Positions 10,758 through 11,395 of a DNA stretch of 64,000 bases are shown here, piece after piece; position 1 is the stretch's first letter, and each line of letters starts with the position of its first letter. The notes beneath the pieces are model-generated. The model saw nothing but the letters and a program-made list of their open reading frames with translations. It was not told the DNA's origin and did no database searches. Origin of the DNA: Escherichia coli (GTDB lineage Bacteria; Pseudomonadota; Gammaproteobacteria; Enterobacterales; Enterobacteriaceae); NCBI RefSeq assembly GCF_016026235.1, contig NZ_CP065613.1, one strand, 5' to 3'. Position numbers and translations under genes: made by a program.

Positions 10758-11051
10758 ATGAAAGTTCAGGCCGTTGGTTTATTCTGGTTTCGCGATGCTA
10801 TTCAGTATCATGAGTTCAAAAAGATTTTTACTGATGCAGATGTGCTCTCCGACAGTTACACCGAGTGGAAACACGACGCTGAAAAATTGATTAAGCGTGT
10901 CGAAAGAAGCGGGCAACGAGTTATTAAAGTTGAAGCGGATACAACCGAGTTCATCACCTGGTGTACAAGCGAAGGCATTGGACTCAATGCCAAAGGTAGA
11001 ATGCAGTTCGCATCCTTTAAGGCTTACCAACAACTTCTCAGCGAACGCTAA
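10758..11051 (+). CDS. hypothetical protein encoded opposite to the early-right operon
   Basis: 97-aa ORF with near-consensus SD AAAGGAGG 6 nt before ATG; an antisense 117-aa ORF (10779-11132) competes. Confidence 0.4.
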   Translation: MKVQAVGLFWFRDAIQYHEFKKIFTDADVLSDSYTEWKHDAEKLIKRVERSGQRVIKVEADTTEFITWCTSEGIGLNAKGRMQFASFKAYQQLLSER

Positions 11052-11128
11052 TGTGATTGGGGCAATCGAAATGGTTGCCCCATCGTATTTAATAGTTATT
11101 TTTTCGCTCATATCACCACCATCACTTC

Positions 11129-11395
11129 TCATCCTCTGTGTGCGCTAAGCTTGGATTTTGAGTTTTTGCGTAACGAATCAGGAATTCCATCTTCAGGGTG
11201 AGGATAAAGATCTGGCCTTAAGCCATGCGGCGTGACCTTCCATGCAACTACTTCACATACGCGTAAAACGAAACGGGCAGGAATTGTGCTTTTTGAAAAC
11301 CACTGATTCACCGCTTGCGGTGTCACACCCAGATTTCGCGCTATGGCATTTTGCGCAATTAATGCACGAAGTTTGTCGTAATCATTTCCTTTCAT
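11129..11395 (-). CDS. cro: Cro-like HTH regulator (YdaS/Cro family)
   Basis: 88 aa, HTH segment LGVTPQAVNQWFSKSTIP; divergent from cI across an operator region. Confidence 0.7.
   Translation of the reverse strand: MKGNDYDKLRALIAQNAIARNLGVTPQAVNQWFSKSTIPARFVLRVCEVVAWKVTPHGLRPDLYPHPEDGIPDSLRKNSKSKLSAHRG

Follow-up and report, generated by a model that had tools for sequence, protein, structure and literature searches.

Probable coding on both strands of a switch-region module beside cro in an Escherichia coli lambdoid prophage

In phage lambda, the promoter PRE starts an antisense unit just downstream of cro that is aimed at cI, opposes the PR transcript and needs CII. The oop RNA is antisense to cII (PMC7067206), and in Salmonella prophage accessory genes with their own promoters lie antisense to lytic genes, such as STMMW_20121 of ST64B (Owen et al. 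2020, PMC7067206). The B3-like Pseudomonas phage Fc02 has an antisense pair beside the cro-like gene ner (Ramirez-Sanchez et al. 2023, PMC9936078). On the lytic strand, ner is followed by gene 10, which is expressed after induction. In the lysogen, olg1/olg2 are transcribed from the distal promoter pC1 by a transcript that runs antisense to gene 10 and ner and reaches into the repressor gene; both Olg1 and Gp10 exclude superinfecting phages (PMC9936078). Fc02 is the sole experimental precedent that we found for the arrangement described here. We analysed a stretch of 64,000 nucleotides of E. coli DNA (contig NZ_CP065613.1 of assembly GCF_016026235.1; called the window), in which a gene for 97 amino acid residues, ORF97 (10758..11051, plus strand, ATG to TAA), stands backwards in the early-right (PR) operon of a lambdoid prophage. 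Opposite to it, on the minus strand, lies a second open reading frame (ORF) that we call the minus ORF.

The locus resembles Fc02 in that a repressor-strand gene lies antisense to the gene after a cro-like gene, at the same place in the switch region. It differs from Fc02 in that there is no sequence similarity, and a tblastn search with ORF97 matched no Pseudomonas B3-like phage. The Fc02 genes are known from RNA-seq and from the phenotypes of cloned genes, whereas the ORF97 pair is known from comparative sequence alone; here a hairpin also stands between ORF97 and cro, and transcription beyond it into cI is presumed. With lambda PRE and oop the locus shares an antisense unit in the slot after cro that points to cI, but the antisense stretch of the lambda units does not code for protein, whereas a conserved protein is encoded here. 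A CII-like protein or a TTGC-N6-TTGC site was not found at this locus. Like a lambdoid moron, ORF97 is a self-contained gene that has a leader and a hairpin of its own, stands between conserved phage genes with mosaic flanks and is oriented opposite to the lytic operon. A moron, however, is an insertion between genes, whereas the strand facing the insertion seems to code and to be under selection here as well. The antisense cases of E. coli O157:H7 and Pseudomonas aeruginosa are, as far as is known, mostly young, taxonomically restricted and based on Ribo-seq. Like the ORF97 pair, the antisense overlapping genes or shadow ORFs of these two species (PMC9927249, PMC8850804, PMC7457138) consist of a long ORF that lies antisense within an annotated gene, and translation and purifying selection have been claimed for them. 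The ORF97 pair, in contrast, is conserved across Proteobacteria orders and is argued from stop avoidance and tests of codon choice.

Long antisense overlaps with both strands under selection are rare and disputed in bacteria and phages, and annotation pipelines exclude them by design. At this locus the annotations name one strand or the other, never both. From the comparison of relatives we consider it rather probable that both strands code and form an antisense overlapping pair in which a lytic-strand gene faces a repressor-strand gene. The locus would then, with the same fair degree of probability, be a compact module of ~430 bp with coding sequence on each strand, lying between cro and the Rha/antirepressor gene. 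The two ORFs share a codon register, each codon of the minus ORF being the reverse complement of a plus-strand codon, and ~270 bases are apparently read in both directions. A preliminary description of this DNA had held that only one of the two ORFs is likely to be real. This is probably wrong, as it is contradicted by the avoidance of stops in the minus frame, the recurrent Shine-Dalgarno (SD) sequence and start codon, the coding-type substitutions and the conservation of the minus peptide through synonymous codons of ORF97. ORF97 was already annotated as a hypothetical protein; what appears to be new for this family is the two-strand coding of a widespread switch-region module, seemingly a variant of the kind known from the one experimental case, phage Fc02.

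That ORF97 is a real gene is hardly in doubt. It is annotated by PGAP (RefSeq WP_000867908.1, 'hypothetical protein') and is preceded by the SD sequence AAAGGAGG (10744-10751, plus strand), the 6-nt spacer TTCGAC and the ATG. Both the coordinates and the SD agree with the preliminary description, and the SD lies outside the minus ORF, which ends at 10779. ORF97 matched PHROG 4753 with an E value of 1e-48, residues 1-97 aligning to profile positions 1-97 of 97, and relatives with 72-93% identity were found in Serratia, Pectobacterium, Klebsiella and Salmonella. When 1.84 billion representatives were searched with a profile, the family comprised at least 1,778 proteins (50%-identity cluster representatives) at E<=1e-3, nearly all of ~100 residues. 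Among 18 distinct DNA alleles, the variable sites at ORF97 codon positions 1/2/3 numbered 34/17/78. The median ratio of non-synonymous to synonymous substitution (omega) was 0.10, with the synonymous distance (dS) saturated at 1-2, and by these measures ORF97 is under strong purifying selection. An AlphaFold2 model of ORF97 reached a mean pLDDT of 92 with the topology beta-alpha-alpha-beta-alpha-alpha, which predicts a soluble alpha/beta protein; this protein of 97 residues is widely distributed.

These results bear on the reverse possibility that the minus ORF is a real cII-type gene and ORF97 is spurious. The slot downstream of cro is typical for cII-type genes, and the authors of 'Elizabethkingia phage EKP1' annotated the minus ORF and not the ORF97 homolog. 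Against this, the plus frame has the omega of 0.10 with saturated third positions, a PHROG family with ~1,800 clusters and a confident fold. The family also occurs without an open minus frame (loci L058, L060 and L069), and the minus ORFs of the window and of five relatives carried no cII or helix-turn-helix (HTH) signature in Pfam or PHROG (E<=1). The homology search that the preliminary description had suggested for both proteins thus gave a family for ORF97 and no match for the minus ORF, to cII or otherwise. Already the codon-position pattern refutes this possibility, which we consider to have practically no probability.

The minus ORF was first noticed as a frame of 117 residues downstream of cro. 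This frame is present, from 11132 to 10779 on the minus strand, and its start codon shares bases with the TGA stop of cro (ATGA). The ATG at 11132 is missing in several close alleles, however, and the conserved start is the second ATG at 11111, which gives a version of 110 residues (10779..11111, minus strand, beginning MSEKITIKYDGATISIAP; MSEK...) that overlaps ORF97 codons 8-97. The translation-initiation region (11112..11132, minus strand) has a weak SD-like sequence, GGTGGTGAT, before the ATG at 11111, in addition to the upstream ATG at 11132. In nearly every lineage, an SD-like sequence and a start codon were found after the upstream gene and before the hairpin that follows ORF97. Clearer sites were seen in relatives, namely GAGG-N6-ATG, AAGGGG-N6-GTG, GGAGGGG-N5-ATG and AGGAG-N11-ATG.

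In some phages a perfect 12-bp palindrome, GTGACATGTCAC, lies across the start codon of the minus ORF (GAGG-CGTGAC-ATG-TCACA). It was found in L004 (~5362-5373), L041/L044 (~4362-4373), L002 (~4389-4400) and L048, and is common to phages with unrelated cro genes and with ORF97 proteins that are only 36% identical. It may serve as a binding site for a protein or as an RNA element.

One line of evidence for the minus ORF came from stop codons. In the shared antisense register, stops of the minus frame arise only from the ORF97 codons TTA, CTA and TCA. Given the Leu/Ser content and the local codon usage, the minus frame of the window would be open by chance with a P of ~0.15 (0.11-0.37 per lineage), and the minus ORF exceeds chance only in comparison with relatives, not in the single window sequence. 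Such a comparison is allowed by the family of ~1,800 clusters, which offers the first 30% of the gene as an internal control and the non-embedded copies as natural controls. In 14 embedded lineages, the first 30% of the plus-strand gene contained 10 stop-generating codons where 7.3 were expected, whereas the last 70% (ORF97 codons 30-97) contained 0 against 20.1 expected. For the nine distant lineages, the last 70% had 0 stop-generating codons against 11.4 expected (P<2e-5). Over 15 lineages and 1,051 codons the minus frame had 0 stops, and the other four alternative frames had 21-78. The prediction was then fixed before five new metagenomic lineages were fetched; their distal part showed 0 stop-generating codons against 3.56 expected (P=0.028) and their proximal part 3 against 1.97 expected.

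An alternative explanation of the open minus frame would be that only ORF97 is real and that the minus ORF is an ordinary shadow, its signals arising secondarily from codon bias, common descent and the conservation of the hairpin. The antisense register is the one classically found open and ORF97 contains little Leu and Ser, so that openness in any one lineage is not improbable, and gene callers nearly always choose the plus-strand ORF. We held this explanation at first, on the basis of an omega of ~0.95 in the minus frame and the P of ~0.15, and abandoned it after the tests of stop position, start site, codon position and permutation. A mere shadow does not account for a distal part free of stops beside a proximal part at background level, a pattern that was replicated. 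Other A-ending codons and other Leu/Ser codons were not depleted. The non-embedded copies L058, L060 and L069 had 4-6 stop-generating codons each, scattered along the gene, and the S24 repressors of the same loci, used as a control family, had 4.1 per 97 codons; both match the prediction of the null model.

We then analysed the part of the minus ORF that does not overlap ORF97, from its start to the ORF97 stop codon. Substitutions at minus codon positions 1/2/3 were 12/7/28 (P=2e-4), and the synonymous fraction was 0.50 in the minus frame, as compared to 0.20-0.26 in four of the other five frames. The +1 frame, which has the same wobble position, reached 0.45 but contained stops in some lineages. 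The conserved minus peptide 'GA..I.IAP' is simply what the 3' hairpin encodes, as an ordinary shadow would have it; the bias at codon position 3, however, falls mostly outside the hairpin stem.

In the overlap, the conservation of the minus peptide was compared with random choices of synonymous ORF97 codons. When the codons were redrawn from local usage, the similarity of the minus peptides exceeded the expectation with z=6.6. In a strict permutation, codons were shuffled among identical amino acids within each gene, and codon usage and protein sequence were preserved. The excess was still z=4.4 for 11 lineages (P<5e-4) and z=3.3 for 9 distant lineages, which argues against by-products of codon bias. 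The controls showed nothing, with z=-0.9 opposite ORF97 codons 2-29 and z=-0.6 for the S24 family. Single positions were also fixed. The codon TTC was used in 18/19 cases at F65/F84 and in 5/15 at F11/F24 (P=2e-4), and GCC in 8/9 cases at A78 and in 6/45 at other Ala sites (P=2e-5). Two minus motifs result from fixed codons, [CS]E.H..[FL]G[IV][DE] and [TA]P[GS].E[LF], and the Pseudomonas copy has both. Translational accuracy as a cause of the fixed codons was rejected, because GAG at E64, AAG at K88 and GCC at A78 are not the preferred E. coli codons for Glu, Lys and Ala.

Natural alleles from IMG/VR (L018, L039, L016 and L031) include the ORF97 nonsense alleles E36* and W37*. The change E36* in L018 is silent in the minus frame, and in the distal part of L039 four differences that are non-synonymous on the plus strand correspond to three synonymous and one conservative change in the minus frame. 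Taken together, the minus ORF is kept open and its sequence is, by these comparisons, weakly but detectably conserved.

Several observations weigh against coding by the minus ORF. All support for it is comparative, and the ribosome-binding site is weak in the window. No match was obtained in Pfam or PHROG for the minus ORF of the window or of five relatives (E<=1), and its AlphaFold2 model had a pLDDT of 66, and the other models scored 38-54; the low confidence of the model, the lack of a family and the omega of ~0.95 are what an ordinary shadow would show. The C-terminal end is highly variable (93-237 residues), and in the window an I8L change ends the ORF ~75-140 nt before Rha. Two alleles lack the minus start, also in keeping with a shadow: L016 has lost 1 nt of an A-run, which leaves only MSEK* of the ORF, and in L031 unrelated DNA follows directly after the ORF97 stop. 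The synonymous sites of ORF97 are saturated (dS 1-2) with no strong local dip, and the constraint on the minus protein would therefore be modest. As to the statistics, the 30% boundary was set after the data had been seen, although it was upheld by the replication set. Independence of the lineages is only partial and is lacking in the close enterobacterial group, and crude ORF sets supplied the codon-usage backgrounds. The replication set was of low power, and the high-GC lineages add little power. Finally, a scan for consensus promoters between 10300 and 11700 found none for ORF97; the same scan also missed PR and PRM. With these points set against the tests above, we consider it improbable that the minus ORF is an ordinary shadow and likely that it is translated.

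Its translation alone might be what matters, with a functionless peptide. Ribosomes would then be kept on the PR transcript across the backwards gene, which would prevent Rho-dependent polarity on the Rha and replication genes and allow translational coupling. The start right after cro fits this proposal, as do the ends of the minus ORF. In many lineages they form an ATGA/GTGA overlap with the next gene start or fall a few nt short of it, as in L004, L040-L044, L057, L073 and L074. Stops are avoided while the amino acid sequence drifts, the model is poor and the C-terminal length varies, which also agrees with a bridge. In the window, L002, L003, L053 and L059, however, the minus ORF ends 75-200 nt before the next gene, and stops are tolerated in the final stretch that a bridge would need. 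Where the minus frame extends past the ORF97 start across the leader, it showed no coding signature (substitutions 17/16/17), and both the overlap and the 5' part show more conservation of the peptide than chance would give. A functional minus product is somewhat more likely than translation as a mere bridge, given the conserved peptide and the tolerance of stops in just the stretch that a bridge would need. We regard a functionless bridging ORF as quite improbable.

The backwards position of the gene is widely conserved. In ~20 divergent lineages, with protein identities from 93% down to ~30%, the ORF97 gene stands backwards in an operon of the opposite strand. These embedded lineages cover Enterobacterales, a Pseudomonas viridiflava prophage and high-GC metagenomic contigs. 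The usual site is directly after a cro-like gene, on the strand of the repressor and upstream of it. The preliminary description had pictured a plus-strand gene here as an antisense-oriented insertion inside the early-right operon, and this proved to be so for a real gene in an arrangement conserved in many phages. As exceptions, the homolog of Klebsiella phage Kp4865-4 is embedded antisense but downstream of the repressor, the L058/L069 group has it beside xis/int in a two-gene plus-strand cassette, and in L060, a short contig, a plus-strand gene lies downstream of it.

The phage named EKP1 (OM284015.1, our L002) has typical enterobacterial lambdoid genes, among them DUF4222, a Q-type antiterminator and an S24 repressor. 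Its module is protein-identical to that of the IMG/VR contig L047, and L046 differs at one residue. The stated Bacteroidota host of EKP1 looks doubtful.

For the coding of both strands that we favour, expression would probably take the following course. The minus ORF would stand second in the PR operon and be translated soon after infection or induction. Translation would start after cro, pass through the complement of the hairpin and then run codon for codon antisense to ORF97 from codon 97 to ~30 or beyond. ORF97 would be expressed from its own promoter while PR is silent, in lysogeny or during its establishment. Its transcript may leak through the weak hairpin, antisense to cro, into cI, comparable to lambda PRE or Fc02 pC1. 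With convergent transcription and messenger RNAs (mRNAs) that are fully complementary over ~330 nt, the two products would be mutually exclusive. For the function of both products, superinfection exclusion is our best guess, purely by analogy with Fc02.

A further possibility, which we offer tentatively and would not rate as likely, is that one and the same ~270 bp give two conserved proteins, one from each strand, and that this two-faced module adds a toggle to the phage switch. During lysogeny or its establishment, ORF97 would come from a promoter like PRE or pC1 that is able to read on into cI, the cro-strand protein would belong to the early lytic phase, and the two transcripts would silence one another by head-on transcription and by forming an RNA duplex. 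Such an arrangement would be ancient and common to lambdoid phages of Enterobacterales, Pseudomonas and high-GC Proteobacteria, and its products might, as in Fc02, guard host and phage together against superinfection at different stages. The module occupies the cII/PRE position of the best-studied genetic switch. If both strands do code, it would be a new component of the lysis-lysogeny circuit in many E. coli, Salmonella and Klebsiella prophages and would generalise the Fc02 case; if the minus ORF is not expressed, the locus remains useful as a case of how strong a spurious indication of dual coding may become.

The module is bounded by conserved non-coding elements. The ~75 nt before the ORF97 ATG are kept in all close lineages regardless of the neighbouring gene and despite the saturated synonymous sites of ORF97. 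This leader block (10689..10757, plus strand) contains a candidate sigma-70 promoter, for which the alignment suggests the hexamers TTGGTG (-35, 10690-10695) and TATCCT (-10, 10713-10718) with a 17-nt spacer. The SD sequence AAAGGAGG is enclosed by a hairpin, GAACC-AAAGGA-GGTTC (10739..10754, plus strand), which is retained in 6-8 of 8 lineages without compensatory changes. On the minus strand, this hairpin had a terminator-like score in the window lineage only, and a role as a conserved tR1-like terminator of the PR transcript was rejected, as the T-run is confined to the same lineage. The segment CCGAACC (10696-10702) could pair with GGTTCG as an alternative to the SD hairpin, and an alternative pairing around the SD hints at a control of ORF97 translation. 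The motif GGAGGTTC also precedes the Pseudomonas ORF97 homolog.

Six nt after the ORF97 stop codon lies a second hairpin with a 10-bp stem (11058..11082, plus strand), inside the 5' coding part of the minus ORF. Its RNA has a folding energy (dG) of -20.4 kcal/mol with z -3.06, and all lineages retain it, the changes within it always preserving the pairing. It may be a terminator, an attenuator or a stabiliser of the 3' end. A U-rich tract is neither adjacent nor conserved, and because it does not follow directly, termination at this hairpin may be partial. On the plus strand, no further terminator was seen from here to cI. A reading of the N-terminus of the minus ORF as an AbrB/MazE/SpoVT swapped hairpin (beta-beta-'xIAP'-helix) was rejected, given the lack of a Pfam match, the pLDDT of 66 and the fact that IAP is encoded by the hairpin. 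Outside the leader and the 3' hairpin the flanks are mosaic, with differing cro, repressor and downstream genes around the same module. Upstream of ORF97, a search for a CI operator found no repeat common with the cI-cro intergenic region, and Rfam gave no RNA family between 10400 and 11600.

What the ORF97 protein may do was approached by its fold. Pfam, NCBIfam and PADLOC gave no domain for ORF97 or 96 tested relatives, the PADLOC defence models matched neither ORF97 nor the minus ORF nor five relatives (E<=0.1), and a profile search of the family against PDB sequences gave nothing meaningful. Foldseek with the ORF97 model against PDB and BFVD matched only SO3848 and two uncharacterised phage proteins. 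SO3848 (PDB 2ox6) is an Aca2/YdiL-like putative regulator, and the predicted topology of ORF97 fits its published extended C-terminal dimerisation part; a C-terminal dimerisation domain with a two-stranded parallel sheet would be expected of a regulator of the Aca2/YdiL/SO3848 kind. ORF97 differs from SO3848 in lacking the N-terminal HTH, with no HTH_3-type match, and there is no relation at the sequence level. Of these regulators, the ORF97 model matched SO3848 only, and not Aca2 or YdiL themselves. The model suggests that ORF97 resembles an HTH-less copy of the C-terminal dimerisation part of SO3848 and would be a protein-binding module. This likeness is a lead to the mechanism, a protein-protein module, and not a family assignment.

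Some family members have several domains: P0020 (506 residues), P0067 (319 residues), P0030 (206 residues) and P0103 (205 residues) contain two or three ORF97-like domains joined by long, charged, helical linkers. The C-terminal segment of P0103 resembles the C-terminal motif of ribosomal L7/L12. These relatives could help to infer the function. With tblastn, the ORF97 family was found in just 2 of 50,697 deposited phage genomes. When viral contigs were scanned with the single proteins P0021, P0026 and P0034, no match was obtained, and a scan of genome contigs for the family gave two loci only.

The lambdoid prophage of the window has its integration site in E. coli next to mlrA (yehV). The first gene of its early-right operon is the cro-like gene (YdaS/Cro HTH; 11129..11395, minus strand), which matched Pfam YdaS_toxin (1.1e-12), P22_Cro (9.6e-5) and PHROG 35 and is named 'transcriptional regulator' by PGAP. 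After the module, the next gene of the operon encodes a Rha/Ant-like regulator (9931..10638, minus strand). PGAP places its start at 10638 and a longer version of the ORF starts at 10704; the former is favoured because the conserved module begins at 10689. Genes for a BRO-N protein, an O-like protein and a DnaC-like protein follow, and from this gene order the minus strand was taken as the PR operon. ORF97 is oriented opposite to it, on the strand of the repressor and upstream of the repressor gene, which encodes a CI-like protein with HTH and peptidase S24 domains (11529..12218, plus strand).

Downstream of cI, there is another long antisense pair, in which a minus-strand ORF of 120 residues (12339-12701) is paired with an annotated plus-strand HTH gene of 164 residues (12364-12858) and was recorded as lying wholly within it. 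In the closely related prophage of E. coli CFSAN029787 (L056), a second backwards gene was found at 10813-11172, a 'transcriptional regulator' of 119 residues within the same early-right operon, with the Rha gene on one side and a DUF4222 gene on the other. Genes in backwards orientation may therefore recur in this operon. The window prophage also carries a cluster of four tRNA genes (3564-3874, minus strand), Gly-TCC, Thr-TGT, Arg-TCT and one with a CAT anticodon, which ARAGORN calls Met and RefSeq calls Ile in a related genome. In a related prophage, the cluster lies between the Q antiterminator and the lysis genes. E. coli FDAARGOS_943 (L001) has a module 100% identical to that of the window in a decayed prophage copy; insertions of IS66/ISSfl3 and IS600 are present, the Rha gene is truncated and the integrase is frameshifted, and the ORF97 module is intact.

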